DNA from: Candidatus Latescibacterota bacterium
GTDB taxonomy: Bacteria; Latescibacterota; UBA2968; UBA8231
NCBI GenBank assembly: GCA_965261395.1
Contig: OZ253462.1
Span: forward strand, 5,280,001-5,344,000
Reading direction: 5' to 3'
DNA: 64,000 nt
The notes under the pieces were generated by a model that ran no database searches, had not been told where the DNA came from, and saw only the letters and a program-made list of their open reading frames with translations. Below are positions 13,996 to 36,047 of the stretch, in pieces (positions within the stretch are counted from its first letter, which is position 1; each line of letters opens with the position of its first letter). Both the position numbers and the translations under genes were made by a program.

Positions 13996-14793
13996 CTAAT
14001 CATCTAGGTTGCCCTGGACTATCACCGCTCCTGCAAATCCCTCGGCCACCATCCGCTCGGCAAAGGCCCACACCTCGGATTGGGGCAGCAGCGCGTTGTT
14101 GCTGATGATCAAATCCGCCCCCACGTGGCCGATGCCGCGCAACCCATCTATACTTTGCAGCGCGCCGTTGCCGCTGACTTCCAAAAAGTCCCGCACTCTG
14201 GCCAAGTAGTGCAGGCCCTCTAGGCTTTGCAGTGCGTCGTTGAACCAAATGTCCACGCTACCTTCGATCTCCACGAGGTGCGGCATATCCGTCAGGGACG
14301 TAAGCGACTCATTGCGGACGAGCGACAAGCCCCCGCTGACAGAGGCCAAGTTTTCCAGCCCTTTAAGCGAGCGCAGGGCCTTGTTTTCAAAGATCAACAG
14401 TCCTTCCACCACGTGAGCGGCTTTGCCAGCCGCCGGTGTGGGCAAGGGCGGCGGTGCGGCCGCCGGACCTAGCCCAGCGCCGACGCTTTCAAGCCCTTCC
14501 AGCCCCGTTAGGCTTTCCAAGCGGTCGTTAAACCAAATCTCGACGCTGCCCTCGACGCGCCTCAGCCCCTCCAAACCCGTCAGCGCGACTAAGCTGCTGC
14601 CGACGATCTGCAAGTCGCCGTCGATGATGTACTCAGCGCCCCCTCTTTCCCTAAGGGCAGCGACATCCGCCGCCGACGCAATGACAACGCCCTCTGCCAA
14701 GATGACCGGTGCTACCGGCTCTTTGCCACAACCCGCCAGCGCGACCAGCAACGGCAAGATCGACCTAGCGCACGGCTCAAAAATCCCGCGCAC
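13996..14793 (-). CDS. Receptor L-domain / LRR-like lipoprotein
   Basis: Lipobox LAGC; repeats LxSLxGLExLxxVxGxLxIxxNxxL; start uncertain (GTG 14793 preferred). Confidence 0.8.
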   Translation of the reverse strand: MRGIFEPCARSILPLLVALAGCGKEPVAPVILAEGVVIASAADVAALRERGGAEYIIDGDLQIVGSSLVALTGLEGLRRVEGSVEIWFNDRLESLTGLEGLESVGAGLGPAAAPPPLPTPAAGKAAHVVEGLLIFENKALRSLKGLENLASVSGGLSLVRNESLTSLTDMPHLVEIEGSVDIWFNDALQSLEGLHYLARVRDFLEVSGNGALQSIDGLRGIGHVGADLIISNNALLPQSEVWAFAERMVAEGFAGAVIVQGNLDD

Positions 14794-15607
14794 ACCGGAA
14801 CCCAATGTCAATATCGGTCAACAGCGGAAGATAGGCTTCTCGATTCGCCGCGGGCAGGGACTCCTTCTCAAACCACCACGACCCACCCCGCAGCACCCCG
14901 AACTCCCCGCGCAACGGCCCCTGCGGATTGTCCCGTGGACTCTCTGCATAGTAAGTGTCCCCGTACCAATCGGCCACCCACTCCCACACATTGCCCGCCA
15001 TGTCGTGTGCCCCATACGGCGACACTCCGGCGGGACGGCTGCCCACCGGCTCGGTCGCTCCGGCAATAAAGCGAAAGTTGGCCTCGTCTCCTTCCAACTC
15101 GTATCCCCAAGGATATATGCGCCCATTAGTTCCACGCGCGGCCTTCTCCCACTCGGCCTCCGTCGGCAGCCGCAGACCAGCCCACGCGCAATAGTCGAGC
15201 GCGTGTTGGCGGTTCGCGCAGTTGATGGGATGAGTGTCCTCTATATCTTTGTCCCAGCTACAGTTAGGGGCATAGGCTGGCTCGTCGCAGGCGTCGGCCT
15301 CCACGCAGCGCCGGTACAGTCCTATGGTGACCTCGAACTGGTCTATGTAGTACGCGGAAAGAAATACTTGGTGCGGCGGCTGCTCGTCCGGCTCGCCCGC
15401 GTCCCAACCCATCACAAAGAGGCCTTCGGGCACGAGCACCATGGCGTGCTCGGCTTTGTTGATCTCGGCGACTGGAGTAGAATCTTCGGTAGCGGGAGCC
15501 TCGCCGGGCGAGGTGGGCGCAACCACGCGAGTCCCGCTCACTTGCCCCGGGTCCTTTTGGCCGCAACCAAGTGCCCACAGGGCCATGCACACTAGCGCGC
15601 GACTCAA
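14777..15607 (-). CDS. Formylglycine-generating-enzyme (SUMF1/FGE-sulfatase) fold lipoprotein
   Basis: MVLVPEGLFVMG, DEQPPHQV, RLPTEAEWEKAARG, YGAHDMAGNVWEW, RGGSW, IGFRCA; lipobox ALGC; TTG start at 15607 after aagggg. Confidence 0.88.
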   Translation of the reverse strand: MSRALVCMALWALGCGQKDPGQVSGTRVVAPTSPGEAPATEDSTPVAEINKAEHAMVLVPEGLFVMGWDAGEPDEQPPHQVFLSAYYIDQFEVTIGLYRRCVEADACDEPAYAPNCSWDKDIEDTHPINCANRQHALDYCAWAGLRLPTEAEWEKAARGTNGRIYPWGYELEGDEANFRFIAGATEPVGSRPAGVSPYGAHDMAGNVWEWVADWYGDTYYAESPRDNPQGPLRGEFGVLRGGSWWFEKESLPAANREAYLPLLTDIDIGFRCARDF

Positions 15608-15618
15608 CGTGCGGCCCC

Positions 15619-17610
15619 TTAGAACACGACCTGCGACACGGCCTTGGAAATCAGCGCAACGGCAATGGACGTCATGCCGATCAGACCCACGCCGCACGAG
15701 TACCCGGCCAGCACGATGGGCGCGTACGCGTACCAGCGCTCGGGGCCAAAGCGCTTTTGCAAGTAGAAGCGGCCCAGCAGGGCACCGACGAAGTTGAGGA
15801 TGGCAAAGTGCGGCCACCCGCCGAGGCCGGCGACAAAACCATAGAAGATCCCCAGCGGCGCGCTGAGTGCGCTCAGCAGCGCGTACAATGCGCCGCTAAA
15901 GGCCAGTCCAATCCCGATGTAATCCCAGCGAATAATTTGGGTCACCAAGCTCTGGCCCGCGCCCGGCAGGGTGGACTTGGCCCAGAACGCCTGCATGGTG
16001 GCGTGGAAGGGCCACATCTTTTGCACGAACGGGTACGCCGAGGAAGGAATCGGCCCGAGCTTCCATATCAGTGACCAAAACAGAAAGCTACACACAAACA
16101 TGACGGCCAAGGTCAGGGCCGTCATCTTGACGATGCTGCCAAAGCGGGTGCGCGTCAGTTCTAGCTGCTTGAACACTTGCGCCTCGTAGCCCCACTGGAA
16201 AATCGGCACCGGCGCGAACCAAATCCCGGCCCCTTGGTAGCCAGACAAATAGAAGCTGGCCTCGCGCAAATAGGGGAAAGTCACCCCCTGCGGCGATCCT
16301 GTTAGGCCGATCATCCGCGTGCCGATGTACGAGTAGATCGGCGTCCACACAAAACCGAAGAACGCCGTGATCCACCAGGGAAAATCGGGCACCAAATAGT
16401 ACACCATCAGCACGAAGCCCAGCGTGCTTACTGCCCAGATCCCCAAGGCCATGACAACGCGGATGTCGCCGCGCTCGGGGCCGGGCCCTTGGCTAGGCTC
16501 CCGAGTTGGCGCGCGCTCCTTGCTGACGGCGAGCAAGACCTTGCCCGCCGTATAGAAGCCTACGGCCGCGACCACGATGGCCCCGCCCAGCGAAAAACTC
16601 AGCCAAAAGTCAAAGGTATTGGCAATCTGGGTGGGGATCGACGACATGCCCGGCTCCCAGGTATGCAGGATGCCGTAGGCATAGAGGATGGGGTTGGCGA
16701 CCAAGTTGACCAAGATCGACGAGGCAAACACCCCTACTACGACCCAGAACGGCAGCACGAGGCCGAATAGCACGTGGATCAAATCCGTGGCCAAGCCGAT
16801 GACCGCGGCGGGCAAAACCGCCTTTAGCGGCACGGTGAAGTCGATGAAGGGAATCGGCAAAATCGACACGGTCTCGGTCAGAAAAACCGACGACAGCGTT
16901 GGCACCACCACGTAGAATACGCCCCACACCGCCCCGATAAAGGCCCCCGTGCTAAACACGTGCCAGCGCCAGCCCTCCTGCTTGGCCGAGGTCTCGGCGA
17001 GGGCAGTGGCACCGCCGGCCTGCACATAGGCCATGGGAAAGGGCAAGCGCTCAATGTCGTGGGTGATGCGGAAGAGCACATAGCCCAACGACAGGGCGTT
17101 GACCCGCTGCAATGCAACGGCGCAGAGGAGGATGACGATGGGCCTAAGCCACGCGCTGTCTAGAAAGCTGCGCTCTAAGAGTGCCTCCGACCCACGCGGG
17201 GGCACGACCCAAGTTGGAATGTGTTCGGCCAGCCCGTCGGCTTGGGGCGATTGGATCAGATATTGATCCCAGATCAACACGCCGAATGGGCCGCCGAAGA
17301 GATCGGCCCCAGTGCCCAGCTTGCCGCCCATCATCACCAAGCCGCCGGCCACCCAGTAGAGGATGATGATCTCCTGAGTCCGCAGATACACGAAGGTGCG
17401 CTTGGCCATTTCGATAAACAGAATCAGGGTCACCCACTCGGCACCCCCGGCCATGCTCATCCCGGTCACCAGCCCGAGGTAAATCGCGCCCGGCAGCATC
17501 ACGAAGCCGACGAAGAGCGCCGCCCACAGGGTCTTTGTATTAAAGCCCGGTTCAAAGGGGGCGTCGGCGGGCATAACCGCGAAGCGCTCTTGGGTGTTAG
17601 CCTGTGACAA
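15619..17610 (-). CDS. OPT-family-like (oligopeptide transporter-related) membrane protein
   Basis: Many TMs; FEPGFNTKT..ALFVGFVMLPGAIYLGL, DIERLPFPMA, PIPSSAYPF. Confidence 0.78.
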   Translation of the reverse strand: MSQANTQERFAVMPADAPFEPGFNTKTLWAALFVGFVMLPGAIYLGLVTGMSMAGGAEWVTLILFIEMAKRTFVYLRTQEIIILYWVAGGLVMMGGKLGTGADLFGGPFGVLIWDQYLIQSPQADGLAEHIPTWVVPPRGSEALLERSFLDSAWLRPIVILLCAVALQRVNALSLGYVLFRITHDIERLPFPMAYVQAGGATALAETSAKQEGWRWHVFSTGAFIGAVWGVFYVVVPTLSSVFLTETVSILPIPFIDFTVPLKAVLPAAVIGLATDLIHVLFGLVLPFWVVVGVFASSILVNLVANPILYAYGILHTWEPGMSSIPTQIANTFDFWLSFSLGGAIVVAAVGFYTAGKVLLAVSKERAPTREPSQGPGPERGDIRVVMALGIWAVSTLGFVLMVYYLVPDFPWWITAFFGFVWTPIYSYIGTRMIGLTGSPQGVTFPYLREASFYLSGYQGAGIWFAPVPIFQWGYEAQVFKQLELTRTRFGSIVKMTALTLAVMFVCSFLFWSLIWKLGPIPSSAYPFVQKMWPFHATMQAFWAKSTLPGAGQSLVTQIIRWDYIGIGLAFSGALYALLSALSAPLGIFYGFVAGLGGWPHFAILNFVGALLGRFYLQKRFGPERWYAYAPIVLAGYSCGVGLIGMTSIAVALISKAVSQVVF

Positions 17611-17630
17611 GAATCTCTTCCCTCGTCTGC

Positions 17631-19283
17631 TCAGTTCTGCACCAACTCGTCGTCGAAATACCGCAAGTGCTCTTCGTACACGTCAATCTGCTCGGCATAT
17701 TTTTTGTGCAAATCCAGCAGATAGCCGTTGAAGTACTCTCGCTCGGTGCGCTCCCCCACGTCCCGCATCACTGCATCCCGCACCCGCTCTAGCTCTAGGC
17801 CGTGATAAATCTCTGGATATCGTTCGATAACCCGGAAGATCGAGTAGCCTCCCCTCGTTTGGATCGGCCCTTGGAGCTGGTTTAGCTCGGCGTTCATCAC
17901 CGCGTTCATCCAAGCCTCCCCTAAAAAGGGAGCCTGTGATTCAGAGACGTACAGGAGGCCATCTTCGGCGGCGCGGCGCCGGCTGTGGGCACGCGCTAGC
18001 TCTGCCCACTCGGCACCCGCCTCAAGCTGAGCCGCGATCTGACGCGCCTCGCTCGGGGTTTCGAGCAAAATTTCCTCCAATTGTGCATGGGGGGGGCTGC
18101 GAAAGCGGTGCTTGTGCTCCTCGTAGAAGGCCCGTAGCTCGTCCTCCGTCGGCGCGGGAGCCTCCGCCAAGATCTGCTCGCGCAGTTTTATCAGCATCAG
18201 GTTGCCCAACGCCAGAGCCTGCGACCGCGCGAAAGCCTCGGTTTTGTCAAGGCCCTTGCGCCGGGCGTCGTGGGCCATGATGCGGGTGGGGAAGTGGCTT
18301 TCAGATAGTTTCTCGTTGACCGCGTCGGCTGTGGCTTCCGGCCACAGCCGGCCCGATGGCCGCACGGCCTCTAAGACCTCTGCCACATCCATCTGCAAGC
18401 CCTCGAAAGCATAGACTGGGTGCTGGCGCTGGGCCTCGTCCAAATCCGCATAACGGACCGCGCCCTGTAAGACGCCGACCACTATATCCATGCCCTCGGC
18501 GTCAAAAACCGTGTCCAAATCCCACTTGAGGTGCCGCAGGTATGATTCGCGCAGTTGCTTTTGCTGCTCGTCGCCGAGTGCTTCGCGGATGCCGTCCTCA
18601 ACCTCGACCAATGCGGCGCGGCGACGCTCCGCCACTTTGGCAATGACGAATCCCCCGTGCAAGGGGAGCGGCTCGGTCTCGCCGCCCACGGGCAGGGCGA
18701 AGACCGCTTGCGCCAAGTCGGGGGGGCTGTCGAAGGGCGAATAGGCCAACCGCCGGATTTCACCGGTATGCACGCCGTAATAAGGGTCGGCGGTGAATTG
18801 GCGACCAGCTTCCGCAAAATCCTCGCCCTGTGCCAAAAGCGCTTGTACCTGACGCGCCTGTTCCCGGCTAGGCACAAAAATCTCCATAGTAGTGACCTTT
18901 TCTCCCCACCCTGGCCGCGCGTAGGCTTTTTCGATATCGTCCTCCGTCACCGCGACGTTGGCCGCGACGTTGCGCCGCAACATCGCGTCGGCGAGAGCCT
19001 TAGTTTCGCGCTTGGCAAGTTCGGCTAAGACCGCTTCGTCGCGCTGCAAACCCCGCCCGTTAGCCGCCAAAAGCAACACCTCGCGGTCAATGAGCGTCTG
19101 CAAGTTGTCCCGGTGCTGCGCGCGCATAGCGGCCGTTTTGAGATTGGCCTCAAAGGTACGCAGATCGGACGCAGTAATTTCGACCTCGCCGACCTTGGCC
19201 AGCAGCGAGGCGTTGTCTGGCCGCTCATCGCCACAGCTAATGCAGGCCCCGACTAGCAGCCCGGCCAACAGCGATTTGTGCAT
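17631..19283 (-). CDS. Parvulin-type peptidyl-prolyl isomerase / SurA-PrsA-like lipoprotein (two rotamase domains)
   Basis: Lipobox-like ACISC; LAKVGEVEITASDL; GEDFAEAGRQF; GAEWAELARAHS; GPIQTRGGYSIFRV. Confidence 0.85.
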   Translation of the reverse strand: MHKSLLAGLLVGACISCGDERPDNASLLAKVGEVEITASDLRTFEANLKTAAMRAQHRDNLQTLIDREVLLLAANGRGLQRDEAVLAELAKRETKALADAMLRRNVAANVAVTEDDIEKAYARPGWGEKVTTMEIFVPSREQARQVQALLAQGEDFAEAGRQFTADPYYGVHTGEIRRLAYSPFDSPPDLAQAVFALPVGGETEPLPLHGGFVIAKVAERRRAALVEVEDGIREALGDEQQKQLRESYLRHLKWDLDTVFDAEGMDIVVGVLQGAVRYADLDEAQRQHPVYAFEGLQMDVAEVLEAVRPSGRLWPEATADAVNEKLSESHFPTRIMAHDARRKGLDKTEAFARSQALALGNLMLIKLREQILAEAPAPTEDELRAFYEEHKHRFRSPPHAQLEEILLETPSEARQIAAQLEAGAEWAELARAHSRRRAAEDGLLYVSESQAPFLGEAWMNAVMNAELNQLQGPIQTRGGYSIFRVIERYPEIYHGLELERVRDAVMRDVGERTEREYFNGYLLDLHKKYAEQIDVYEEHLRYFDDELVQN

Positions 19284-19370
19284 AAAAAGAGGAGCTAGAC
19301 GGAAGGTCCAGCTCCTCGTAACGAGATATCCTGTCATACGCGTTATCCAGATGCGAAGCAGCGTCGGGAC

Positions 19371-20138
19371 TCAACCCGCCCCGTCCGCTCCGGCCTTTTT
19401 CCTCGTTCCTTGGTCCACCGCAAAGCGGAACTCGACGTCGATGGTTTCTTCCGGATTGCCACTGGCGTCAAACGAAAGCACGAATTCGTGGAAGGTGAGC
19501 AGCAACTCGTCGTTTTCCGGCAGCAACGGGTCGAAGACCAACATGCCTTTTTGGCTGCTGTCGCGGAAGATCGGTCGATGGCGGTGAAAGACCGTCTTGT
19601 AGATAATGCCCATGCGCTCCAAGTTGATTTCGCGCTCGTTACCCGAAGTGCCGATCTCCATTTTGTAGTACTTGGTGAAACTGTTGCCCCCCAACACGAC
19701 GGCTCCCTCGCGCCCCGGATCGTAGTAGCGATAGGTCTCGCCGCCCGATTCCATGGTCGCCTTGGCCGGGTCGAATTCGATCTTGGCATAGGTCTTGTTT
19801 ATGACCTCGACTTCAAAAACGGTAAACTGGGGTGGGGTATAGCCCTTTTCGGGATCGATGTCGTCCCGGGTATAGGGATTGACGTGACGACCGTCGTACA
19901 GAGGTGGGAAGCGCTCGTTGAGCTCGGGGTCGCTCAGGTGCCGGATCTTAATCAAAAGCCCCTCTTTGCTAAAGACCATCGAGCTGTCGTCCGGGTCAAT
20001 GGTGTAATCGCCGCGGCCCTCGGGCAGGACGGGCATCACGTGCAGATCGTACTCGAGTTGGGGCGGCACCAGCCCCCCGCAACTCCAGACTAGCCCGAGT
20101 ACCACTACTCCGAGGAGTGCCGCATACCTCGCTCTCAT
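19371..20138 (-). CDS. Hypothetical lipoprotein (paralog of 31185-31964)
   Basis: Lipobox VWSC; IDPDDSS, YTPPQFTVFEVEVINKT..IEFDP. Confidence 0.8.
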   Translation of the reverse strand: MRARYAALLGVVVLGLVWSCGGLVPPQLEYDLHVMPVLPEGRGDYTIDPDDSSMVFSKEGLLIKIRHLSDPELNERFPPLYDGRHVNPYTRDDIDPEKGYTPPQFTVFEVEVINKTYAKIEFDPAKATMESGGETYRYYDPGREGAVVLGGNSFTKYYKMEIGTSGNEREINLERMGIIYKTVFHRHRPIFRDSSQKGMLVFDPLLPENDELLLTFHEFVLSFDASGNPEETIDVEFRFAVDQGTRKKAGADGAG

Positions 20139-20169
20139 AAAATTACAACTCCCTTTTTGCTAGCTGCCG

Positions 20170-20589
20170 TCAATTGGTTGGTTCTTCGGTTTCAATGTCG
20201 ATCTGTCCTATGCCCGCCATGGTAGCCGATTCCATTGCGTCGATGATATGGCCGTGCGCAGCATCGGCGTCCGCGGTGATAATCAGCGTCGATGAGCCGG
20301 TGCGGACCTTTTCGCGCTCTAGCCAGCTCGCTAGCTGCCCCATGGCCACTAGCTGCCCGTTGATCTCGAGCTGGCCCTCGCTCGAGATCCGCAGATTCAG
20401 CTTCTTCTCTGCCTTGAGCTGGTCGTAGTGCACCGAGTCGGGCAGCTCAATCCTGAGCTGAGTGGCCTTGATGAAGACCGTGGTGGTCATAAAGAAGATC
20501 AGCAGCAAGAACACCGCGTCTATCATCGGCGTCAGGTTCAGTTCAAATTCGCCGGCTTTTTCGGCCAGCGACTGTCTCCGTTTAGCCAT
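20170..20589 (-). CDS. exbD: ExbD/TolR family biopolymer transport protein (Asp retained)
   Basis: LNLTPMIDAVFLLLIFFMTTT; ITADADAAHG. Confidence 0.92.
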   Translation of the reverse strand: MAKRRQSLAEKAGEFELNLTPMIDAVFLLLIFFMTTTVFIKATQLRIELPDSVHYDQLKAEKKLNLRISSEGQLEINGQLVAMGQLASWLEREKVRTGSSTLIITADADAAHGHIIDAMESATMAGIGQIDIETEEPTN

Positions 20590-20596
20590 GCCGCTT

Positions 20597-21016
20597 TTAT
20601 CCTTCTCCGCTCTTGGCGAAAGCAATGGCCTCAATGCCCTCGCCGCGGGCGATGTCCATCACCTGCACCACATAGGAGTGAGGCACTGAACGCGCGGACT
20701 CCAAGATCACGTTCTTGGTGTTGTCGGCCTCGATGACTTGACGGATCTTTGCCGCCAAGCGCGCCTTATCCGTGACCTCGCCGTTGACTTGGATCGTCTG
20801 ATCCGGATCAATCACGATGTTCATGTCCTTGGTCGCTCTCGACTCACCCTCGCCGCCCGGCAAATCTACGCTCAGGCCCTTGGGGTTGACGAAAGTAGTC
20901 GCCACCATAAAGAAGACCAACAGCAAGAACATGCAGTTGATAAGCGGAGTCAGATCCGGGTTCTCCGTGGTCTTGAAGGCACTTTTGCCGAATCCGCTCT
21001 GTCGTCTCTGCCGCAT
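20597..21016 (-). CDS. exbD: ExbD/TolR family protein with Asp->Asn in the TM motif
   Basis: PDLTPLINCMFLLLVFFMVATTF; LSVDLP; VVQVMDIAR. Confidence 0.9.
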   Translation of the reverse strand: MRQRRQSGFGKSAFKTTENPDLTPLINCMFLLLVFFMVATTFVNPKGLSVDLPGGEGESRATKDMNIVIDPDQTIQVNGEVTDKARLAAKIRQVIEADNTKNVILESARSVPHSYVVQVMDIARGEGIEAIAFAKSGEG

Positions 21017-21034
21017 TGCAGCGTCTCTTTCTGC

Positions 21035-21709
21035 CTAGCTGGCCTCCCGCTGGCTGGCCTGGAAGCGCACCAACAGGGTATTGGCGAAGGCGTGACAGTA
21101 CAGCTCCACGCTCTTGAAGACCTTTTCCGCGCGACCGGAGAGGTAGCGGTGGAAGACGATAGTCGGAATGGCGACGATGAGGCCACTGGCCGTCGTAATC
21201 AGGGCCTCGGAAATGCCGCTGGCCACGGCCGCCGGATCGCCGGCCCCGGCGCGGGCAATCGCGTCAAAGGCGTTAATCATACCCATGATCGTGCCCAACA
21301 GCCCCATCAGTGGAGAGAGGACGCCAATCGTTCCAAGCGCGTTGAGCAAGCGGCCGAGATACATCTCGCCGGCCTCCTCCGTGGCCAAGATCAATTCCTG
21401 GCGCATGTCCTCTAGGTCCGTGCGATTTTCCAACACTAAGGTGTCGTAGCGCTTGACCAAGGCGGCGAAGACGAAGTTGAGCACGCCGCTGCCCTGCCGG
21501 AATAGTTCGACGGCTCCGCCTTCGCCTTGGCTTCTGAGCACTTCTTCTGCCTCGTTGAGCTGCTGTTCGGCCTCCTGTTCGCCCGGGACCGTCAGCAGGC
21601 GCCACAGCCGTTCTATAATGATGGCTAGAGCGATCAGCAAGCAGAGCAACAGGGGCCACATGATAGGCCCGCCTTTGAAAAATTGGTCAACTAAAAAATT
21701 TTGCTCCAT
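21035..21709 (-). CDS. exbB: MotA/TolQ/ExbB proton channel family protein
   Basis: GGPIMWPLL; LGTIGVLSPLMGLLGTIMGMINAF; GISEALITTASGLIVAIP. Confidence 0.95.
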   Translation of the reverse strand: MEQNFLVDQFFKGGPIMWPLLLCLLIALAIIIERLWRLLTVPGEQEAEQQLNEAEEVLRSQGEGGAVELFRQGSGVLNFVFAALVKRYDTLVLENRTDLEDMRQELILATEEAGEMYLGRLLNALGTIGVLSPLMGLLGTIMGMINAFDAIARAGAGDPAAVASGISEALITTASGLIVAIPTIVFHRYLSGRAEKVFKSVELYCHAFANTLLVRFQASQREAS

Positions 21710-27972: not shown

Positions 27973-28023
27973 GGCAGCTATCCTCATTCAGTATAGAGAT
28001 TCCGTCTTCAGTCGCATTCCAAC

Positions 28024-28884
28024 TCAGCGCTGGCGATAACCAACGCTGAACCGATGTACACCTCCATAGCCGGAGAGGTGTAGCGGGTAGGAATAAGCAT
28101 AATCGAAATGCCATTGCTTATAGTTGTGGCCAAGGCCCACATTGAACTCTCTGTTGTCAAAACCTGTACCAACCGCCGCCCCGCCCATGCGGAACCGAGC
28201 GCCGTTGAGACTCACCGTCCGCGTCTCGAAACCCACTCTGAACTCGGTTTGCCCATCGCGGCGCTCAATGTCGAGTAGGACTTCCCGCCCCGTCAAGTTG
28301 AGCAAGGCCGCTGCGACCACGGCCGGCTTTTCTTTGCCTGCAGCTTGGCCACCCGCTGCGATATTCGCGCCGTTTAAGCCTTTGGCGACCAACCCCAAGC
28401 GCAGGTACGCTCGCGGGTGAATGAAACCCACTTCCCAAGTCGCCCCTACATCGAGGTGCCAAGCCCGGTGCGACAGATCGCCAGCTTTCCAAGCGCTGGT
28501 GCGCAAGCCGCCGCCTAAGGCGAATCGCTCGTTCAACGGCCGGCCATAGCCCAAGGCAATTACTTCTTCGCGCCAGCCATCGGCACCGAGAAACGAAAGG
28601 CCCAGTTGCAAACCGCCGCCCCGCAAGGGGCCGGTTACCGACAAACCGTTTAAGGCTGGGCTTTGGTCCAACCCGGGATAGAGCAACGCGTGCGTCGTGC
28701 CTGCCTGCCATTTTTGCTGCTGGGCATTGCCGGCCGGATTGTACCAAACGGCCTCAGCCGTCTGAATACTGGCGGCGAAAGCCCCGCCCAACGCCGTGCT
28801 CTGGGCCCCCTGTGCCGCAAATTCAAAAGCAGCACCAACCGGGGAGACGAGAGCCAGCAATAGGACGCTAGTACGCCACCACAA
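28024..28884 (-). CDS. PorV/PorQ/PorP-like outer-membrane beta-barrel
   Basis: Signal peptide; GAQSTALGGAFAA...AVWYNPAG; C-terminal FDYAYSYP...GVHRFSVGY. Confidence 0.78.
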   Translation of the reverse strand: MWWRTSVLLLALVSPVGAAFEFAAQGAQSTALGGAFAASIQTAEAVWYNPAGNAQQQKWQAGTTHALLYPGLDQSPALNGLSVTGPLRGGGLQLGLSFLGADGWREEVIALGYGRPLNERFALGGGLRTSAWKAGDLSHRAWHLDVGATWEVGFIHPRAYLRLGLVAKGLNGANIAAGGQAAGKEKPAVVAAALLNLTGREVLLDIERRDGQTEFRVGFETRTVSLNGARFRMGGAAVGTGFDNREFNVGLGHNYKQWHFDYAYSYPLHLSGYGGVHRFSVGYRQR

Positions 28885-30526
28885 AAGTGCCCCGGCGCGC
28901 CTTGCCGCTTTCTTCTATCATAACCTCGTACAGATAAAGCCCCGGCACGACAACGCGACCGCTGCCATCGCGGCCGTCCCACTCGAACTGATAGGTGCGG
29001 GCGCTTCCTGTCTGCGCTAATTGGCGAACCGGCCGACCGGTCAAATCGTAAATTTTTAGCACGACTTCCCGGCCCGCTTCGATATTGCCGACGACCAAGG
29101 CAAAGCGCGCATACTCGTCGGCAAACGGCGAGAACGGGCGCGGCTGCACCTGCACTGCTCCCAAAAGCTGCAACGGCGTCCCCGCAGCCAGTACCGTCCA
29201 ACTGGTGCCCGGCATTTCCCGCCCCTGCTGCCAGTTCACGTAGCCGTCTCTGTCGCCTTGGGCCTTGTTGCCGGCCGAGAAACGCATCGCGGTCTTGTCG
29301 CGCACAAAGAGCGCCGGCCCCTCTATTTCGACGGTCGCCATTGCGCTGATTTGCTCGCTAGGTGCAAGCTCTATCAGCATCCCCTCCCGATCCGGCGTCG
29401 GGCCCCAGGTGTAGTCGTCTGTGGGCACGAGTTCTCGACCATCGACGCGCACGGCTGCTACGCGGAGCAAGGGTCCTTGTACGCGCAAGAGATCCACCCC
29501 GTAATCATCGACGCCAGCCGCGATTTCTACTCGGTAGATCAGCGTCGCTTCCTCGCCCTTGCGCAGCGCATCGGATGCGACCACCTCCCCCATGAGCTGT
29601 TGGGCGACCAAGACGGGATCATAGTCAATGGCCATGCGCTTGAGCGCCGGGCTGACAAAGGGGGCTGAGTTCGTCAGGCGAGCCCGATATGCCAACCGCG
29701 CAACCGGTTCGTCCCCGCTATAGAAAAATTTCCCGTCCGTGTGCGCCGCAACCCTTCCCCAAGGCTCCTCTGCTCCCTCTGCAGCGGCTCCGCGCACCTG
29801 CAGCTCAATGCCCGTGCGCTCCGGGCGATCTAGTTGCCAGCGGATCTGCCCTACGTTGACCGGAGTAGGCAGAGCGAAACTGTCCTCTATGAAGCCTTCG
29901 CTAACATAGCCCACGCCAAACACCTCGATTTCCCCGATAGCGACCCAATTGCTGCGGTCTTGGCGGATCAGTGTCAGCCGCACGAAGCGACCCTCGCGCG
30001 GAATCGCCGCGCCGCGCTCGTCGGTTGCGGCCCAAGTAGAATCTGCGCTCGTATCTACATTGAGGACGAAATTGTCCGGCTGCTCCGCCAAGAGGTGCCA
30101 GACTTGCGGCGCCGCTTGGGTGGCTGTTTCGAGCCTGTACCCACGCACGAAGTACTCGGGCTGGTTCAGCGCCGTCTCGCCGGCTAGCACTCGCACCCGC
30201 TTGATCGCCCGGTCCAAGCCGAGATCGACGGTAAACTGCTTGTCGAACACGTGATTGGTACCCGAAATCCACTCGCTCCGCACGAGGTCAATCGCGCCGT
30301 CGGTTAGGGGCACAGGCTTGTCAAAATCGTCTATCACCGATCGTCCTAAGGCCACGTTTACATCCTCGTCCAAATGCGCCAGAATGACGAGGCTATCTGG
30401 ATGCACCTGTACGCCTTGGGTCGTTCCCAAGGCAAATGTATCGACCGCATCCACTATCCAAGTGTTTAACTCAGCACGGCACGGACTGAATTCAAGCAAT
30501 AGCAAGAGTGCGCCCAGCTTCAGCAC
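28868..30526 (-). CDS. Secreted protein with discoidin/galactose-binding-like domain and FlgD-Ig / gliding-motility-type C-terminal domain
   Basis: FTVDLG..RAIKRVRV...GRFVRLT...IGEIEVFG; C-terminal PRPFSPF...KIYDLTGRPVRQL...WDGRDGSGRVVVPGLYLYEV...FVVAY. Confidence 0.8.
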   Translation of the reverse strand: MLKLGALLLLLEFSPCRAELNTWIVDAVDTFALGTTQGVQVHPDSLVILAHLDEDVNVALGRSVIDDFDKPVPLTDGAIDLVRSEWISGTNHVFDKQFTVDLGLDRAIKRVRVLAGETALNQPEYFVRGYRLETATQAAPQVWHLLAEQPDNFVLNVDTSADSTWAATDERGAAIPREGRFVRLTLIRQDRSNWVAIGEIEVFGVGYVSEGFIEDSFALPTPVNVGQIRWQLDRPERTGIELQVRGAAAEGAEEPWGRVAAHTDGKFFYSGDEPVARLAYRARLTNSAPFVSPALKRMAIDYDPVLVAQQLMGEVVASDALRKGEEATLIYRVEIAAGVDDYGVDLLRVQGPLLRVAAVRVDGRELVPTDDYTWGPTPDREGMLIELAPSEQISAMATVEIEGPALFVRDKTAMRFSAGNKAQGDRDGYVNWQQGREMPGTSWTVLAAGTPLQLLGAVQVQPRPFSPFADEYARFALVVGNIEAGREVVLKIYDLTGRPVRQLAQTGSARTYQFEWDGRDGSGRVVVPGLYLYEVMIEESGKARRGTFVVAY

Positions 30527-30527
30527 T

Positions 30528-31184
30528 TCAGAATAGCAGTTTCCGCGTCAGGCTGGTCACCACGGCAATCGCGAGGGCCTCCTCCAACTCCCGCGAGTTG
30601 AAGGTCATTACAATGCCGGCATCAATCGGACTTTTCTTTTTCACTTTGCCGGTTTTAAGATCCCTGACTGAAATCTCGACCTGCACTCTCTGCGTTTGCG
30701 GAGAGAATACTTTGCGCACCCGCTGACTGGTAATCACAGCCGTGCCGCTAATTTCCAAGTCGGCCTCGTCCGAGTCCGCGGCAACTAACGCGAAGGGATT
30801 ACTCACTTGTCGCACGCTGTCTCCGTCTAGCACCTCGACCCGATCCGTCTGGGTGAAGATCCGCACCTTGTCCTTGCGCAGTTCGCGCAACAAAGCCCCC
30901 GACAAATCCTCGATGCGCGAAGGCCGAGTAATCTGCACCAGTTTATTTCCCTGGCTGGCGAGGGCATTAGTAACGTACTGGGTGCCCTGGCTACTGGCCG
31001 AATTGGCGGCCCTCGGATCAACCACGTTGGCCTTGCTCTCGACCGGGAATTCCTTGACGTATATTTTGATCGGCATCGACGGCGGATTGGGCAAACTGGT
31101 GTCCCTGAGTGCCTCGTATTTCAAGGCACAGCCCGTCGAGCCGACAAGCAGCGTCACCCCGAGGTATTTGACCATCTTTTTCAT
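30528..31184 (-). CDS. Hypothetical lipoprotein
   Basis: MKKMVKYLGVTLLVGSTGC lipobox; tightly packed in operon. Confidence 0.8.
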   Translation of the reverse strand: MKKMVKYLGVTLLVGSTGCALKYEALRDTSLPNPPSMPIKIYVKEFPVESKANVVDPRAANSASSQGTQYVTNALASQGNKLVQITRPSRIEDLSGALLRELRKDKVRIFTQTDRVEVLDGDSVRQVSNPFALVAADSDEADLEISGTAVITSQRVRKVFSPQTQRVQVEISVRDLKTGKVKKKSPIDAGIVMTFNSRELEEALAIAVVTSLTRKLLF

Positions 31185-31964
31185 CTACTTATTCTCCACC
31201 CAACGCACTCCGTGATCGACATTGAAGTTGAATCTCAGATCGGTAAATTCCACTGGATTGCCGTATCCTACTTGAAATTGATCAAAGGCCAGAATGAAGT
31301 CGTTTACTTCGAGAGTGAGTGACTTCGTCTCTGCGGGCAGCGGTGGAAAGGTCAACTTGCCGCTGTATCTGGAGCCTTTGCGCACGGGCTTTTCCCGGTA
31401 GTACTCGCTCCTGGTCCAGATCGGATTGCGGTCCAAGCTGGCGTGATAGCGCACATTGCCTTCTTGTCCCCCCCACTTCAAATAGGAATAGTCGAAGAAC
31501 TCGTCCTTGTCGTACCAACCTCCTGCCCCTTGGCGACAGAGCAGTCGGCTGCCGTCGTCCAAGCGCAGAATGGTCTGCGTGGGATCTAGTTCCACCCGCT
31601 CTCGAGTGCGATTGATAACCGTCACTTCAAAAACGGTCCACAGGGGCGGCGTATAGTCCAAGCCGGAAATTTCGACTCCCGTGAGCGTATAGGGCGTGAA
31701 GCGAGGGTCGTATTCGGCGTCGAGCATGGCATCGTCGTAGAACTTGACCTTGACTTGCACCCCTTTCTCGCTCCACACGACCGAGCTGTCGATCGGGTCG
31801 ATGTAATAGGTCTCCCCATCGGGCAGGATCGGCTCCAACTTGATAAAGTACTCCCGCTGCGAATGCGATTCGAGAGATTTGATGGTAGCGCATCCTCCAG
31901 TAGCCAACGCCAAGCACAGAAGGACGTGAATGTATTTTGCGATTGGTCTCATCTGCATTCGCAC
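31185..31964 (-). CDS. Hypothetical lipoprotein (paralog of 19371-20138)
   Basis: Lipobox TGGC; IDPIDSS, YTPPLWTVFEVTVINRT..VELDP. Confidence 0.8.
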   Translation of the reverse strand: MRMQMRPIAKYIHVLLCLALATGGCATIKSLESHSQREYFIKLEPILPDGETYYIDPIDSSVVWSEKGVQVKVKFYDDAMLDAEYDPRFTPYTLTGVEISGLDYTPPLWTVFEVTVINRTRERVELDPTQTILRLDDGSRLLCRQGAGGWYDKDEFFDYSYLKWGGQEGNVRYHASLDRNPIWTRSEYYREKPVRKGSRYSGKLTFPPLPAETKSLTLEVNDFILAFDQFQVGYGNPVEFTDLRFNFNVDHGVRWVENK

Positions 31965-31965
31965 C

Positions 31966-34935
31966 TTAGAAGGGTGATATCAGCTCCACGAAGAGAATGC
32001 CCTGCTTGGAGTCGGGCCGCCCTTCATGGCTAAAGTCCCGCCGCGTGCGCTGGTAGCCGAAGAATATCGAATTGTCGCGGATGCCAAAGTAATCTGCGGT
32101 GATGCTCAGCATGGCCAGATAATCGGTCTGGCTGTACGTCCCATCTTCAAAGGCGCGATCCCAGTGCTTAAACGGCAGCAAGGGCAGCCCCTGCACACCT
32201 AGCTGAAAGCGGGTCTTGGGCGTGAGCTTGTACTGCCCCATTACGATGGGGATGAAGTCGCTGTACGATTTCCGCGGCGTATCTTCGCTGTCAACCTGCT
32301 CAAAGATCGTCCGATGCTTTAACTTAGGCGTGACGCTGAAGGCACCCCAGCTATGGGTATAGTCGATCTTGTTGACAACGGAAAAACGCGAGCGCACGTC
32401 TTGGGGCTGCAACAGCCCGCTGCCGTCTTCAAGCTCAATTTCGGCTTGGCTGTTGCGCTGCCACAGGAAGCCGTTTTCAATGTTGAAATCGCGGAAGCCC
32501 TGATAGGTGCTGTCAAAAAAGAGGAGATGCACAAAGCTGTCGCGCATCAACAGCCCGTCCGGCGTCGCCGGACGCCAAAAACCCGCACGCTCGGGCGGGC
32601 CATCAGGCTCGTTTAACCAGCTAATGACCTCGATATCGTCAATGGGCACTTGGTACACATAGGTGTGATCCGGTATGTCGTCTTTGACCTGCTTGGCATC
32701 GTAGTTAATCCTGAGTGAGCCAACACCGCGCTTTTCCAACTCATAGGCGTAGCGGAAGTAAAGCCCTTTGGATTTACCTAGGCCAGCGATCTGACTGTTG
32801 TCGTAGCGACCTATGCTGATGAACTCGCCCAAGCGCCCTAAGTGGTCGTAGCGGAGAAAGATATGCTGGCCCTTCTGATCGCGTGGATAGGGATAGTCCG
32901 GCTTATCGTCATTCTCGCGGAGGTCGGGCACGTTGTTGTTGTTGAAGTCGATGCCATAGACAAATTCGGGCGGCTCTGAATCGTAGGTTAGAAACGCCTC
33001 TTCCCAGTCAACAATGAAATTCTCGTTGCGATCCATATCTGGGATGTTATCGACGTTTTCGTCGAGGCCGGGGTACACTTGGGCGTTGGGAAAGCCCGGA
33101 TACAGCGTGCGCGGCTCGGCGGTAGCCGTATCGTCGCTATCGCTGTCGGGGAAGCGATCATGATCGTCGTTGTCCTCGTGGATGGGATACTCCTCGGTGA
33201 CTGTAGAGATTCTCTCGCCGGGAGCAGGCTGCCCATCGTAGTGGAAAGCCATGCCGCCTCGGTAGCTGTCGTAGCCGCCGCCGTAGTCTGGATCCATGCG
33301 GTATATCTCGCCGCCCAGCGCCAGACCGCTGGCTAGGTCCTTGATGCCCTTAACCCACCATGCCAAGGCGCGCTCACTACTGCGCTCGCCTTCGTTATTG
33401 CCGATCGGGAACATGAAATTTTGCAGGTTGTGCGCCACTTCGCCGCTGAGATCTAGCCCGACCAAATCAACCTGATAGTTGATCGAGGCCAAACTCTGCC
33501 CGGTGGGGATGCCATAGTCAAAAGAGACCATCCGCCGGTTGGCACCACTGCCGTCGCTGCCATCGGCGCGGATGATGGTGTAGTAGAGTTCCTCATCTTC
33601 GTCTGTGTACCATTTGAACGGACGCCGTATGGCCCGCTCACCGGCGCTGGCGATGGGAGCTGGCCAAGCCGACTCGGTGATCGCCGCGTTGCCCCGGCGA
33701 TCAATATTGAAGAAGTCGTGGGTCTGGCTGACACCGACCCGGTAGTCGCCGGCCACATCAGCGACAAAGCGCGCCGAGCGCACCGTCACGTCCGGTGGGA
33801 TAACAAAGGTGTAAACCACCGGCACCTTGCCCTCGGCCTCGCGCCCGCCGCCGGCGCGGACGGTACCGCCCTCGGGTGGCCCAGCTTCTAGCAGTGGGTC
33901 GTAATCCGGATCGTCGTCGAGGCTGGTCAGGCGCACCGGCTCTGTGTTGCGCTCACCCTCGAGGACGATGTCCACGCCATAGACAATGGCATTGGCCCGT
34001 TCGTCGTCAGGCGAATCATCGGCCACGAAGACGCGGATGGTCTTGGGGCCGAGCATCTCATAGGGCAAATCGCCGCGCCAAGCGCTGGTGCGCGACAGCG
34101 CCGGCGAAGCCATAATCTGGTTGATTAGCGTCCCACCAACGCTGGCGAATCGACCTACTTCGTGCTGATAGTGGCCGCCAAAGAGCATCACCGGTGAGTT
34201 GTCCCAAGCGTCGTCGCCTTCTTGGCCAATTGCCCATTTGGAGAATAGCTGAGCACCAGAGTGATCGCCACCGCGAGAGTACAACAGAGTCGCCCGGTCG
34301 CGCTCCTTGTAGTTGAGGTCCATGCGCAGCGCACTCATCTTGCTGTTGACCAGCGTGAGCGGCGTAAAGATGGTGCGAATATCTGTAGCACCTCCTTGTG
34401 TGCCCACGTTGCCCAACGTGGCGGTCCAGTGCAAATCCTTGTGAGTATAGTGGCCGATCCGAAACGCCCGATACTTGTGGTCGATATAGCTATACCCACT
34501 AAAATCGTTGCCACTGCGCGACTCTTCTATCGTCAGGACCCGCTGATAGCCTCCGCCCATGTAGTTGCCCATCCGATCCCAACCCACGTTGCGGGCTTTC
34601 AGAGGACGGCCCGACGGAGTGGCCCAAGCAACGGTCTCCCGGTAGTACGCAATGTACTTTTCGTCGGCGTAGTTGAGATAGGGGACGCTGATTGCAGTGT
34701 TGAGGAAAGCCCTCCCCAGTCCTCGGTCATAGCGGTCTTGGGGACCGCGTAGAAAGGGGGGGCGCTTTTTCCACGGAGGATCTTGCGGCGTGCCGGGAGT
34801 AGGATCGTAATAGGGCAGCGGACCGGCGGATTCGGGGTGGCGCTGCGCCTCTACTGGCGCGGACAGGCCAGCCCAAGCCAGCGCGAACAAGACCACCCAG
34901 CCCTTGACAACACGGCATTTTAGAAAACACAGCAT
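31966..34935 (-). CDS. Hypothetical 989-aa putative outer-membrane protein with Asp-rich loops (paralog of 25048-27972)
   Basis: Signal peptide ending VEA-Q; DNDDHDRFPD, PGLDENVDNIPD, YGIDFNNNN, PDYPYPRD; ends ...FVELISPF. Confidence 0.75.
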   Translation of the reverse strand: MLCFLKCRVVKGWVVLFALAWAGLSAPVEAQRHPESAGPLPYYDPTPGTPQDPPWKKRPPFLRGPQDRYDRGLGRAFLNTAISVPYLNYADEKYIAYYRETVAWATPSGRPLKARNVGWDRMGNYMGGGYQRVLTIEESRSGNDFSGYSYIDHKYRAFRIGHYTHKDLHWTATLGNVGTQGGATDIRTIFTPLTLVNSKMSALRMDLNYKERDRATLLYSRGGDHSGAQLFSKWAIGQEGDDAWDNSPVMLFGGHYQHEVGRFASVGGTLINQIMASPALSRTSAWRGDLPYEMLGPKTIRVFVADDSPDDERANAIVYGVDIVLEGERNTEPVRLTSLDDDPDYDPLLEAGPPEGGTVRAGGGREAEGKVPVVYTFVIPPDVTVRSARFVADVAGDYRVGVSQTHDFFNIDRRGNAAITESAWPAPIASAGERAIRRPFKWYTDEDEELYYTIIRADGSDGSGANRRMVSFDYGIPTGQSLASINYQVDLVGLDLSGEVAHNLQNFMFPIGNNEGERSSERALAWWVKGIKDLASGLALGGEIYRMDPDYGGGYDSYRGGMAFHYDGQPAPGERISTVTEEYPIHEDNDDHDRFPDSDSDDTATAEPRTLYPGFPNAQVYPGLDENVDNIPDMDRNENFIVDWEEAFLTYDSEPPEFVYGIDFNNNNVPDLRENDDKPDYPYPRDQKGQHIFLRYDHLGRLGEFISIGRYDNSQIAGLGKSKGLYFRYAYELEKRGVGSLRINYDAKQVKDDIPDHTYVYQVPIDDIEVISWLNEPDGPPERAGFWRPATPDGLLMRDSFVHLLFFDSTYQGFRDFNIENGFLWQRNSQAEIELEDGSGLLQPQDVRSRFSVVNKIDYTHSWGAFSVTPKLKHRTIFEQVDSEDTPRKSYSDFIPIVMGQYKLTPKTRFQLGVQGLPLLPFKHWDRAFEDGTYSQTDYLAMLSITADYFGIRDNSIFFGYQRTRRDFSHEGRPDSKQGILFVELISPF

Positions 34936-34989
34936 GAAAACCCCTCGCGGGTCATATCATATTGAGCAACCTGAAGATTAACGGGCGAG

Positions 34990-35019
34990 AACATAGGTTT
35001 GCCTAAGCTCGCGGGTCAA
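34990..35019 (-). promoter_or_regulatory. Possible internal sigma70 promoter
   Basis: Minus strand TTGACC-18 nt-TATGTT immediately after the terminator T-tract. Confidence 0.45.
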
Positions 35020-35020
35020 G

Positions 35021-35059
35021 AAAAAAAAACGGGAAGCAGGCGTCAAGCCCACTTCCCGT
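35021..35059 (-). terminator. Intrinsic terminator after the CBM9-like gene
   Basis: Minus strand acgggaagtgggc-ttgac-gcctgcttcccgt followed by a long T-tract. Confidence 0.85.
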
Positions 35060-35087
35060 CTTTGTAAACCTATCCAGAGGCTATTGA

Positions 35088-36047
35088 CTACTGGACGAAG
35101 GTCTCCTTTACACGGCCCCAAGAATCTTCTTCGACCGCTGCCGCTGTGCCTGTCGGGCCAGCCGGCGTATCCACAAAGACATAGTTGGCAAATTCGGACT
35201 GGTTGCCGCCCGCCCAACCCACGCACTGAATCTGGCCACCATAGGCATCTTCGCCATCGGGATCGACCGGCAGCCAAGTAAAGCCCATCTCAGAGCCAGT
35301 CGTGGGGGCTTCAAAGAGGTTCCCATTGCGCAGGAAAGTGTCCCACTCCATCCGCCCCTCGATCACGTAGTCGGCGTCGCCCTCGTCGCCAAACTCATCG
35401 CCGGCGTCGCGGAAGCCGTACTCAAAGCCCTCAATCGCATCGGGGTCGTGAACGTCCACGCGCTGGTTCTGCACGGTGGTGATGTAGCAGACGGACAGTT
35501 CGTTCGAGCCGAAAGGCACAGCCATAAAGTTGACCACATTCAGGTTGACGTACTCGCCGGTCGGGTCGCCACCCGGGTGATCTTCGTTGTTCATGTCGAG
35601 GTAGAGAGACATGGAGTCGCGCTCCCACCAAGCCCGTGCCTCACCGCCACCCTCGGTGTCGCGGACATTATCGCTAACCTCGGTGAGGTAGTATAGGGCA
35701 TCGTCGTCCCACGCCTGCAAGATCACCGAAGAGAAATCGGCGTCGGTACGGCCCTCACCAGCTACTTCGGTCTCGCCGTTTTCATTGAGCTGGTTAGCGC
35801 TTACCTCGCTGGATCCCTGCTCGATATTGCGCCAACCATATTCTTGACCGTCGAGCTGAATCTGGCTTGGCGAGCAGGGAAACTCTAGCGCACCAGTCCA
35901 CTCGTCGGCAACTGTTGCACGGTCGCCATCGAGCGTGGGCGCTTGGGTAAACTTGGGCAAGTCGAAGTAGCGTATCGGCGGCTGGGCATTGGCCAGCGTA
36001 GTAACGCAAAGGGCCGCGATCGCAGCCAAAAGAGTCAACTTCTTCAT
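35088..36047 (-). CDS. Secreted acidic CBM9/DOMON-like sugar-binding protein with C-terminal TxxAVE..WGRVK tail
   Basis: Signal peptide ANA-Q; PTLDG...EW, AWDDDALY...VSDN, WERDSMSLYLD, YVIEGRMEW; RBS aggag. Confidence 0.78.
   Translation of the reverse strand: MKKLTLLAAIAALCVTTLANAQPPIRYFDLPKFTQAPTLDGDRATVADEWTGALEFPCSPSQIQLDGQEYGWRNIEQGSSEVSANQLNENGETEVAGEGRTDADFSSVILQAWDDDALYYLTEVSDNVRDTEGGGEARAWWERDSMSLYLDMNNEDHPGGDPTGEYVNLNVVNFMAVPFGSNELSVCYITTVQNQRVDVHDPDAIEGFEYGFRDAGDEFGDEGDADYVIEGRMEWDTFLRNGNLFEAPTTGSEMGFTWLPVDPDGEDAYGGQIQCVGWAGGNQSEFANYVFVDTPAGPTGTAAAVEEDSWGRVKETFVQ

Follow-up and report, generated by a model that had tools for sequence, protein, structure and literature searches.

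The 64,000-nucleotide stretch of DNA analysed here (the window; C1:5280001-5344000 of the single-contig 6.55-Mb genome of a Candidatus Latescibacterota bacterium) contains a run of 16 minus-strand genes built around an ExbB-ExbD motor, with a divergent gene for a DUF4159 protein close to its upstream end. The locus is a module, conserved and expressed, in which barrels, lipoproteins and TonB-shaped proteins of new families are joined to an additional ExbBD motor, and this module is separate from the TonB system and from the core of the system for type IX secretion (T9SS). With a probability of about 0.5, the locus is the central copy of a TonB-like uptake system that is driven by the proton motive force and built from other protein families. 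The inward direction and the cargo are inferred. Energised uptake is favoured because the barrel family, here called BIG, shows a receptor-like expansion, because other taxonomic families carry transducer genes barrel by barrel, and because BIG is inversely related to TonB-dependent receptors.

A sequence-only reading of the window had described 16 co-directional genes behind a TTGACA-17-TATTAT promoter. Both were found, and all 16 minus-strand open reading frames (ORFs) lie where that reading had placed them. The core genes and their signals, followed by the DUF4159 gene, are:

36096..36124, minus: sigma-70-like promoter TTGACA-17-TATTAT upstream of g01, the best site in 16400-36300
35088..36047, minus: g01, secreted CBM9-like protein of 319 aa (CBM9_1, 38.6 bits)
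35025..35063, minus: terminator-like hairpin after g01 (17 bp, 8 GC, T9), inside a 152-nt gap
35019-34990, minus: promoter-like TTGACC-18-TATGTT, just past the g01 hairpin and before BIG1
31966..34935, minus: BIG1, 989 aa, unnamed family, with signal peptide and C-terminal Phe
31185..31964, minus: lipoA1, lipoprotein of 259 aa, unnamed family, 1 nt past the end of BIG1, lipobox with invariant Cys
30528..31184, minus: lipoB, 218-aa lipoprotein without family, lipobox conserved in orthologs
28868..30526, minus: g05, surface-protein candidate with a discoidin domain (F5/8C, CBM32-like), a middle part without assignment and a T9SS-type C-terminal domain (CTD)
28024..28884, minus: g06, small PorV/PorP/FadL-like barrel of 286 aa (NF033709, 45.7 bits, cut-off 90)
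25048..27987, minus: BIG2, 979 aa, paralog of BIG1 (38% identity)
21758..25030, minus: tetratricopeptide repeat (TPR) protein, 1090 aa, conserved hydrophobic N-terminus (anchor or signal)
21035..21709, minus: ExbB/TolQ-family proton channel (PF01618, 100.5 bits)
20597..21016, minus: ExbD1 (PF02472, 91.5 bits), Asn at the usual membrane Asp position
20170..20634, minus: ExbD2 (PF02472, 99.6 bits), membrane Asp kept
19371..20138, minus: lipoA2, 255-aa lipoprotein, last core gene
19289..19317, minus: terminator-like hairpin after lipoA2 (12 bp, T5)
37246..38460, plus: DUF4159 protein, candidate force transducer, divergent, 15.5 kb from exbB and outside the stretch described in the sequence-only reading

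A conserved and expressed module

Genes 1-14 are kept in order at 27 of 49 related loci, and the segment BIG2-TPR-ExbB-ExbD-ExbD-lipoA is contiguous at 34 of the 49; the remaining loci are either truncated by the end of a contig or belong to paralogous clusters. The order holds down to 50-60% protein identity, and its conservation is far above chance. The conserved core, BIG1-lipoA-lipoB-CTD/discoidin-PorV/FadL-like-BIG2-TPR-ExbB-ExbD-ExbD-lipoA, has an order shared between families at only 26-44% protein identity. In genomes G006 and G012 it takes the form CTD protein - FadL/PorV-like - BIG - BIG - TPR - DUF5683 - small ORF - ExbB - ExbD - ExbD - DUF4159 - lipoA, followed by the unrelated ffh gene, and G003 has the same order without DUF4159. 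Thus, the distinct trans-envelope system proposed from the letters alone does have a gene order that is conserved in related genomes.

Loci 56-93% identical to the window BIG2 are also present in records labelled Gemmatimonadota, Planctomycetota, Handelsmanbacteria or Gemmatimonas phototrophica (L017, L025, L030, L031, L043-L045 and L047-L051). In all probability, these Latescibacterota contigs were wrongly labelled or binned. An Ignavibacteriales match, P0074, shows 26% identity.

Presence was surveyed in 61 genomes of the phylum. BIG occurs in 36 of them, the CBM9-like family with the g01-type tail in exactly the same 36, and lipoA in 34, all within the BIG-bearing set. DUF4159 reaches a best E value of <= 1e-45 in 35 of the 36 BIG-bearing genomes and in 0 of the 25 BIG-less ones. 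None of the four (BIG, lipoA, the CBM9 tail and strong DUF4159) was found in three taxonomic families (0/16, 0/3 and 0/5 genomes), in which SprA and the OPT-like protein both occur. Plug domains, by comparison, are present in 61/61 genomes.

The intergenic gaps across the 16 genes are 0-48 nt or overlaps, the exception being the 152 nt between g01 and BIG1. The promoter ahead of g01 fits 11 of 12 positions (the sole 11/12 match in the region), and an AAGGAG ribosome-binding site precedes the g01 ATG at 36047. The sequence-only reading had placed all of the genes behind this promoter. The common direction and the small gaps stand; however, because of the hairpins after g01 (fold -57.5 kcal/mol, z = -3.2) and after lipoA2, there are probably three transcription units rather than one plain operon: g01 by itself, the core genes BIG1 through lipoA2, and lastly the PPIase (peptidyl-prolyl isomerase), OPT-like, FGE and leucine-rich repeat (LRR) genes.

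In contigs assembled from four metatranscriptome runs (two studies), each of the 30 bins of 16200-36199 is covered at 90-99% likeness, and there are RNA contigs that span from lipoA2 into the TPR gene, between BIG2 and g05, and between g05 and BIG1. Such assembled contigs give neither transcript starts, ends nor strand. The depth at g01 is 5-10 times that of the rest of the locus in 4/4 runs. Downstream of 19300 the depth drops, and two contigs end nearby (X15 record 3 at 19329, X16 record 9 at 19368), which together are a weak hint of a terminator after lipoA2. In all four runs, one contig omits 196 bases inside g01 (window 35633-35830), probably a variant form in related strains.

Barrels, motor and candidate transducer

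Neither BIG1 nor BIG2 has a Pfam match at E<=10 or an NCBIfam match, and six of seven other BIG proteins have no Pfam match at E<=1, the seventh showing only a chance-level match to DUF817 (E 0.27). Sequence and profile searches of the PDB with BIG alignments gave no match. Plug (PF07715) is absent from both window proteins by Pfam, while the same model matches 22 genes elsewhere in the genome, and the SprA model TIGR04189 matches neither of them. The AlphaFold2 (AF2) model of BIG1, calculated from a 50-sequence alignment (pLDDT 78, pTM 0.77), has as a whole 42 beta-strands and almost no helix. A Foldseek search with this model returned large barrels only (MtrB, SlpA, LptD, SprA, ushers), with TM-scores of at most 0.24, and VIA fold comparison likewise gave generic barrel matches only. 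According to the model, BIG1 is an outer-membrane barrel, and since its only matches are generic large barrels at these scores, it is predicted not to be an ordinary TonB-dependent receptor, BamA or SprA, in keeping with the sequence-only reading of a machine lacking such a receptor.

The best Foldseek matches (E 5e-9 to 1e-5) are to LptD-LptE, MtrB-MtrA and SlpA, and in some of these systems a lipoprotein gene adjoins the barrel gene. However, these matches have TM-scores of 0.13-0.24 at an rmsd of more than 20 A, and their sequences show no similarity to BIG; as modelled, the resemblance is generic barrel likeness only. The family itself is small: out of 1.84 billion cluster representatives, 894 match at E<=0.001, and this genome has 44 members. 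Most members have a conserved W/Y-rich region of ~110 residues after the signal peptide, of which only traces are seen in BIG1 and BIG2. An Asp/Asn-rich stretch of DxNxN type is common to all, and many Asp and Asn residues are invariant.

The genome has only four exbB places. A canonical TPR-ExbB-ExbD-ExbD-TonB locus and 20-22 Plug/TonB-dependent receptor genes lie elsewhere, and thus the window ExbBD is an extra motor. Two reduced versions of the module are also present in the genome: CBM9-like - lipoA - PorV-like - TPR - ExbB - ExbD - DUF4159, and DUF5683 - small ORF - DUF4159 - lipoA - X - ExbB - ExbD - ExbD. The window ExbB is 68-100% identical across the related loci. Against the equivalog models for TolQ, ExbB, TolR and ExbD the window motor stays below all cut-offs, ExbB scoring best with the TolQ model. 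With the membrane Asp position placed by a motif, ExbD1-type ORFs of the related loci have Asn in 33 cases, Asp in five and no motif match in three, and ExbD2-type ORFs have Asp in 35 and no motif match in four. The Asn of ExbD1 is typical of the window's clade; distant families and paralogous modules have Asp in both copies.

The TPR gene lies directly upstream of exbB in the window and at loci L062 and L098, and two small genes intervene at L096 and L097. Its product scores 212 bits with the YbgF/CpoB model (cut-off 90), 130 with BamD (81) and 115 with PorW/SprE (250), the YbgF model matching six repeated stretches of the 1090 residues.

In 5/5 aligned copies, the DUF4159 protein is predicted to begin with a short cytoplasmic segment, followed by a single membrane helix, ~100 linker residues rich in K, R and P, and a globular domain, which judged from sequence is the layout of TonB and TolA. 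Its gene follows exbD-exbD in G006 and G012 (the usual place of tonB), is found as ExbB-ExbD-DUF4159 at L062, and stands beside exbBD at L061. Of the seven full-length copies in this genome, five have a BIG gene no more than 4 kb away or exbBD no more than 2 kb away, and in G003, G046 and G027, DUF4159 genes adjoin BIG directly in 5/5 regions inspected. The sequence-only reading had found none of the known motor partners. That holds for TonB_C, Plug, TolA/TolB/Pal, GldLM and SprA at the locus, but a protein of TonB topology, the DUF4159 protein, does belong to the system. All five DUF4159 proteins match DUF4159 only in Pfam at E<=5, the TonB_C/TolA C-terminal domain being absent; the closest PDB relative of the domain is the uncharacterised 4i66, and a literature search on DUF4159 found nothing beyond the Pfam paper. 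DUF5683 membrane proteins are encoded beside motor and DUF4159 genes at L097:12387-13028, L061:9632-10273 and L064:18590-19180, with none in the window locus; a literature search for DUF5683 returned only unrelated papers.

Compared with TonB-ExbB-ExbD and its TonB-dependent transporters (TBDTs), SusC/SusD included, the window shares the ExbB/ExbD motor, a protein with helix, proline-rich linker and globular end encoded after exbD, and the arrangement of many paralogous large barrels on few motors, with surface binding proteins encoded beside each. It differs in that BIG lacks both the Plug and the TBDT domain and gave no close match in fold, and in that the candidate transducer ends in DUF4159 rather than TonB_C and lacks the His motif. 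In addition, the window surface proteins have T9SS tails instead of lipid anchors, the 1090-aa TPR protein and lipoA are added, and no hydrolases were found in BIG cassettes. No SusC-type TBDT, SusD, CAZyme or sensor domain was found in the 16 window genes.

Transducers other than TonB have been proposed downstream of TPR-tolQ-tolR-tolR and are described as having a von Willebrand A (vWA) fold and a helix with a conserved SHLS/His motif (Mol Biol Evol 2025, PMC12204202). The gene order is the same as here: TPR, TolQ-like, two unlike TolR-like proteins and then a single-helix linker protein with a non-TonB globular domain. In contrast, the proteins described here match only DUF4159 in Pfam and have no conserved His; the main text of that paper does not name DUF4159 and mentions no barrel partners. 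Neither the vWA nor the DUF4159 class has a known function.

Surface proteins, lipoproteins and neighbouring genes

The g01 protein closes with the tail TAVExxSWGRxK. Of 33 homologous ORFs at the related loci, 29 have it, as do 18 of the 19 paralogs that this genome encodes. Nothing hydrophobic or anchor-like is present past the tail, so that it looks like a sorting or docking tag, one named in no library. In the general form TAVExxSWGxIKxxF, the tail closes at least 33 ORFs of the genome, mostly CBM9-like secreted proteins of ~300 aa (in g01, window 35088-35135).

The two lipoA proteins are paralogs (35% identity, E 6e-35), and neither loose-threshold Pfam nor PDB profile searches gave a match for the family. 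The core ends with lipoA in G003, G006 and G012 as well. A hidden TonB was considered for lipoA2 (255 aa, encoded after exbD) and ruled out, as it is a lipoprotein paralog of lipoA1. For lipoB, one copy was found in the genome, with no Pfam match at loose thresholds.

In g05, FlgD_ig scores 30.3 bits (cut-off 27) and Por_Secre_tail 17.1 (cut-off 23). The F5/8C match is weak from the single sequence and firm when a profile is compared with the PDB (neuropilin b1, E 5e-14); the same profile search reaches the C-terminal region of PorU (E 6.5e-5). The family has 77 copies beside BIG genes. For g06, PorP_SprF matches are weak, and the G012 ortholog weakly matches the FadL family. The domain assignments of the sequence-only reading hold with Pfam and NCBIfam, that of discoidin firmly by profile.

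The locus resembles T9SS, with its PorV/PorP-like shuttles, type B cargo and SprA-PorV-PPI-SprE translocon, in that a candidate cargo gene with a CTD is followed by a PorV/PorP-like barrel gene, in the sub-threshold PorW/SprE match of the TPR protein, and in the PPIase and FGE-fold lipoprotein encoded close by. The 5:2 motor architecture is common to T9SS and ExbBD. However, the genome has its own SprA (C1:2065172-2070727), PorU and PorV elsewhere, BIG proteins are ~980 aa compared with ~2150 aa for SprA, and the window motor is ExbBD rather than GldLM. SprA is found in 56 of the 61 phylum genomes, BIG-less ones included, and on these grounds T9SS itself as the identity of the system, and BIG as the T9SS translocon or the partner of its motor, were ruled out. 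GldL and GldM gave no match genome-wide, with the GldM control silent in control genomes and the GldL control matching only below cut-off. No literature was found on such a system in searches for type IX secretion in Latescibacteria or for T9SS with ExbB/ExbD.

Beyond the lipoA2 hairpin, and on the other side of g01, lie the following genes:

17631..19337, minus: lipoprotein PPIase (SurA/PrsA/PpiD-like) with two parvulin stretches, accessory
15619..17610, minus: 663-aa polytopic membrane protein, OPT-like, accessory
14777..15817, minus: FGE-sulfatase-fold lipoprotein (PF03781, 173 bits; GldK model 73 bits, cut-off 350), accessory
13996..14811, minus: LRR/receptor-L-like lipoprotein (Recep_L_domain, 24.2 bits, weak), accessory
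36218..37249, plus: secreted 343-aa protein without family, overlapping the DUF4159 gene start by 4 nt

The PPIase, OPT-like, FGE and LRR genes are accessory rather than core. The PPIase most likely starts at ATG 19280, just past the hairpin, which would give a proper lipoprotein signal, and it has 30 matching places in the genome. The 663-aa protein has no Pfam match at E<=10 (PF03169 included) and no PDB match; by language-model features it falls at 0.97 to OPT-like clusters, in which 15-33% of members carry OPT, and an OPT-like peptide transporter is a lead only. DUF6785/DUF6784 membrane proteins (~53 copies in the genome, one at window 9700-11604, minus strand) are distantly related to it (E 0.003, common ERLPFP-like motif) and are OPT-like by language-model features; no literature on DUF6785 was found. 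GldK-model matches are all below cut-off, paralogs of the LRR/receptor-L protein occur in other BIG cassettes, and the 343-aa protein has no Pfam match at loose thresholds.

Further genes in the window include an array of FG-GAP/ASPIC-UnbV and TPR proteins (39446-47280, plus, and 41135-42361, minus), both families of which recur around many BIG cassettes. A 1550-aa protein combining peptidase M28 with an FtsX-like permease is encoded at 3585-8237 (minus) and again at L073:745-5358, with at least two genome copies, and an 842-aa protein at 57305-59833 (minus) has a Calx-beta domain and an autotransporter beta-domain.

Energised uptake and its rivals

In the mechanism we propose, the ExbB-ExbD1-ExbD2 motor would pull on the DUF4159 transducer, with the TPR protein as a scaffold. 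The transducer would act on the BIG barrels, possibly via lipoA, and open them. T9SS-delivered discoidin proteins and the abundant CBM9-like protein may capture a polymeric substrate at the surface, probably a glycan or glycoprotein, which would then enter by way of the barrel. Alternative receptors sharing few motors would be encoded in the other 42 BIG cassettes of the genome, and the PPIase, OPT-like permease, FGE and LRR genes would be lineage-specific accessories.

Neighbours were counted within 5 kb of each of the 44 BIG genes. A CTD-tailed discoidin gene of a single family is found near 41, a second BIG gene near 22, a lipoprotein PPIase near 16, a CBM9-like gene near 10, a DUF6785 membrane protein near nine and lipoA near eight. 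FG-GAP/ASPIC, TPR and LRR/receptor-L domains are common in the cassettes, and sugar-acid enzymes and ABC binding proteins occur at their edges. PMT_2 (GT-C, protein-mannosyltransferase-like)-TPR fusions lie directly after BIG genes in ~10 cassettes, for example L066:10189-12480, L068:5223-7514, L076:5295-7496, L083:10229-12499, L086:1140-3158 and L089:15567-17504.

Among the 36 BIG-bearing genomes, the median Plug-domain density is 1.9 per Mb; in 24 BIG-less ones (the 0.8-Mb BIG-less genome G026 is left out) it is 4.4 per Mb, and out of 13 family medians the three highest belong to the three BIG-less families. This is a hint that BIG partly substitutes for TonB-dependent receptors.

Several points weigh against the uptake system. 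The contrast in receptor density is confounded by relatedness, as it comes from three families, two of them in one class. Among 130 scanned cassette neighbours there is no glycoside hydrolase, lyase or dedicated peptidase, and a catabolic uptake locus would usually hold some hydrolases; the analogue of a polysaccharide utilization locus suggested in the sequence-only reading is thus not borne out. The membrane PMT_2 glycosyltransferases with TPR repeats, near 10 of the 44 BIG genes, fit protein display better than uptake. The OPT-like permease, to which that reading had assigned a part, is not co-distributed with the barrels: it occurs in 47/61 genomes, families without barrels among them, and was not found in 13/13 genomes of a core-bearing family, so that it is not a core component. 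No His/SHLS or invariant Ser is present in the DUF4159 membrane helix of five aligned paralogs, and the coupling to ExbB is therefore suggested by gene position alone. Finally, contigs built from RNA do not prove that the genes share one transcript, and some carry-over of DNA is conceivable; the 5-10 times greater depth at g01 argues for RNA.

As a result of the absent hydrolases, the glycosyltransferases and the adhesion-type neighbours, two other functions stay alive. One of them, unlikely but worth serious consideration, is a surface display or movement machine in which T9SS-exported discoidin adhesins sit on PorV/PorP-like and BIG barrels and are moved or tensioned by ExbBD, the TPR protein and DUF4159, much as SprB/SprF with GldLM in Flavobacterium or Agl-Glt in Myxococcus. 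The CTD proteins adjoining 41/44 BIG genes would fit such a machine, as would cassette CTDs that match CHU_C (type B-like) and FlgD_ig, the discoidin, LRR/receptor-L, FG-GAP/ASPIC and PKD neighbours, the PMT_2-TPR enzymes and the lack of hydrolases in scanned cassettes. Agl-Glt combines a motor of the Tol/Exb type with TonB-shaped proteins in the inner membrane, TPR proteins, outer-membrane barrels, a lipoprotein and an adhesin at the surface, a possible parallel to the motor, TPR protein, barrels, lipoprotein and TonB-shaped protein here; the GltC model, however, scores only 17.5 bits (cut-off 450), giving no sequence membership. The order of cargo gene and PorP/PorV-like gene also mirrors type B cargo with PorP-like anchors (PMC9143113). 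However, one motility track would hardly call for 44 different barrels, the cassettes inspected in G003, G046 and G027 show DUF4159 and CBM9-like genes with no g05-like match, and an inverse relation to receptor density would be unexpected. Less probable again is export or sorting of the SWGxIK-tailed CBM9-like proteins, with BIG as energised exporters or surface-insertion pores that read a beta-strand-like tail. The conservation of the tail (18/19 paralogs, 29/33 orthologous ORFs), its presence on at least 33 ORFs, the occurrence of the tailed family in exactly the 36/61 genomes with BIG, the position of g01 at the head of the locus and its by far highest abundance in RNA contigs all agree with such a role, and CBM9-like genes flank BIG in G003. 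Yet only 10/44 BIG genes here have one within 5 kb, and the tail might just as well be a strand that docks onto a partner, at the surface or in the periplasm, within an uptake complex. Exporters combining an ExbBD motor with a barrel in this way are not known apart from isolated cases such as Oar/PopC (PMC6434023).

That the genes are not one machine, and are unrelated envelope genes merely kept together in the lineage, is very unlikely. Two internal terminators do divide the 16 genes, the OPT-like gene is uncoupled from BIG across genomes, and L030, L031 and L038 have TPR followed by lipoA with no exbBD match between them; against this, the core order survives between families at 26-44% identity, the four unnamed families are present or missing together across the 61 genomes, and reduced modules with the same families recur three more times in the genome. 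The least probable of the alternatives is envelope maintenance or barrel biogenesis of a Tol-Pal-like or BAM-accessory kind, with the TPR protein as a CpoB or BamD counterpart, the PPIase as a SurA counterpart, and BIG as clients or tethers. The TPR protein exceeds the YbgF/CpoB and BamD cut-offs, a SurA/PpiD-like PPIase is nearby, and ExbB does best with the TolQ model, though below its cut-off. However, the TPR scores stem from the six repeated stretches in 1090 aa (CpoB has about 260), no TolA, TolB or Pal domain is found at the locus, the PPIase lies behind a terminator, and a gene set not found in 25/61 phylum genomes is not essential housekeeping.

Energised uptake remains the reading we prefer. 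To our knowledge, TonB-dependent receptors are the only well-understood energised nutrient route across the diderm outer membrane. Tentatively, Latescibacterota may have independently built a second form of energised outer-membrane transport, with its own barrels, the DUF4159 transducer, lipoA, capture proteins with T9SS or SWGxIK tails and a duplicated ExbBD, partly replacing TonB-dependent receptors as the chief entry route for nutrients. If this is true, energised outer-membrane transport was invented more than once, and the DUF4159, BIG, lipoA and SWGxIK-tailed CBM9-like families would gain functions. It would also link T9SS-delivered surface proteins to an ExbBD motor, which bears on the use of surface proteins outside Bacteroidota, and may account for the feeding or attachment of a phylum that is widespread and uncultured.

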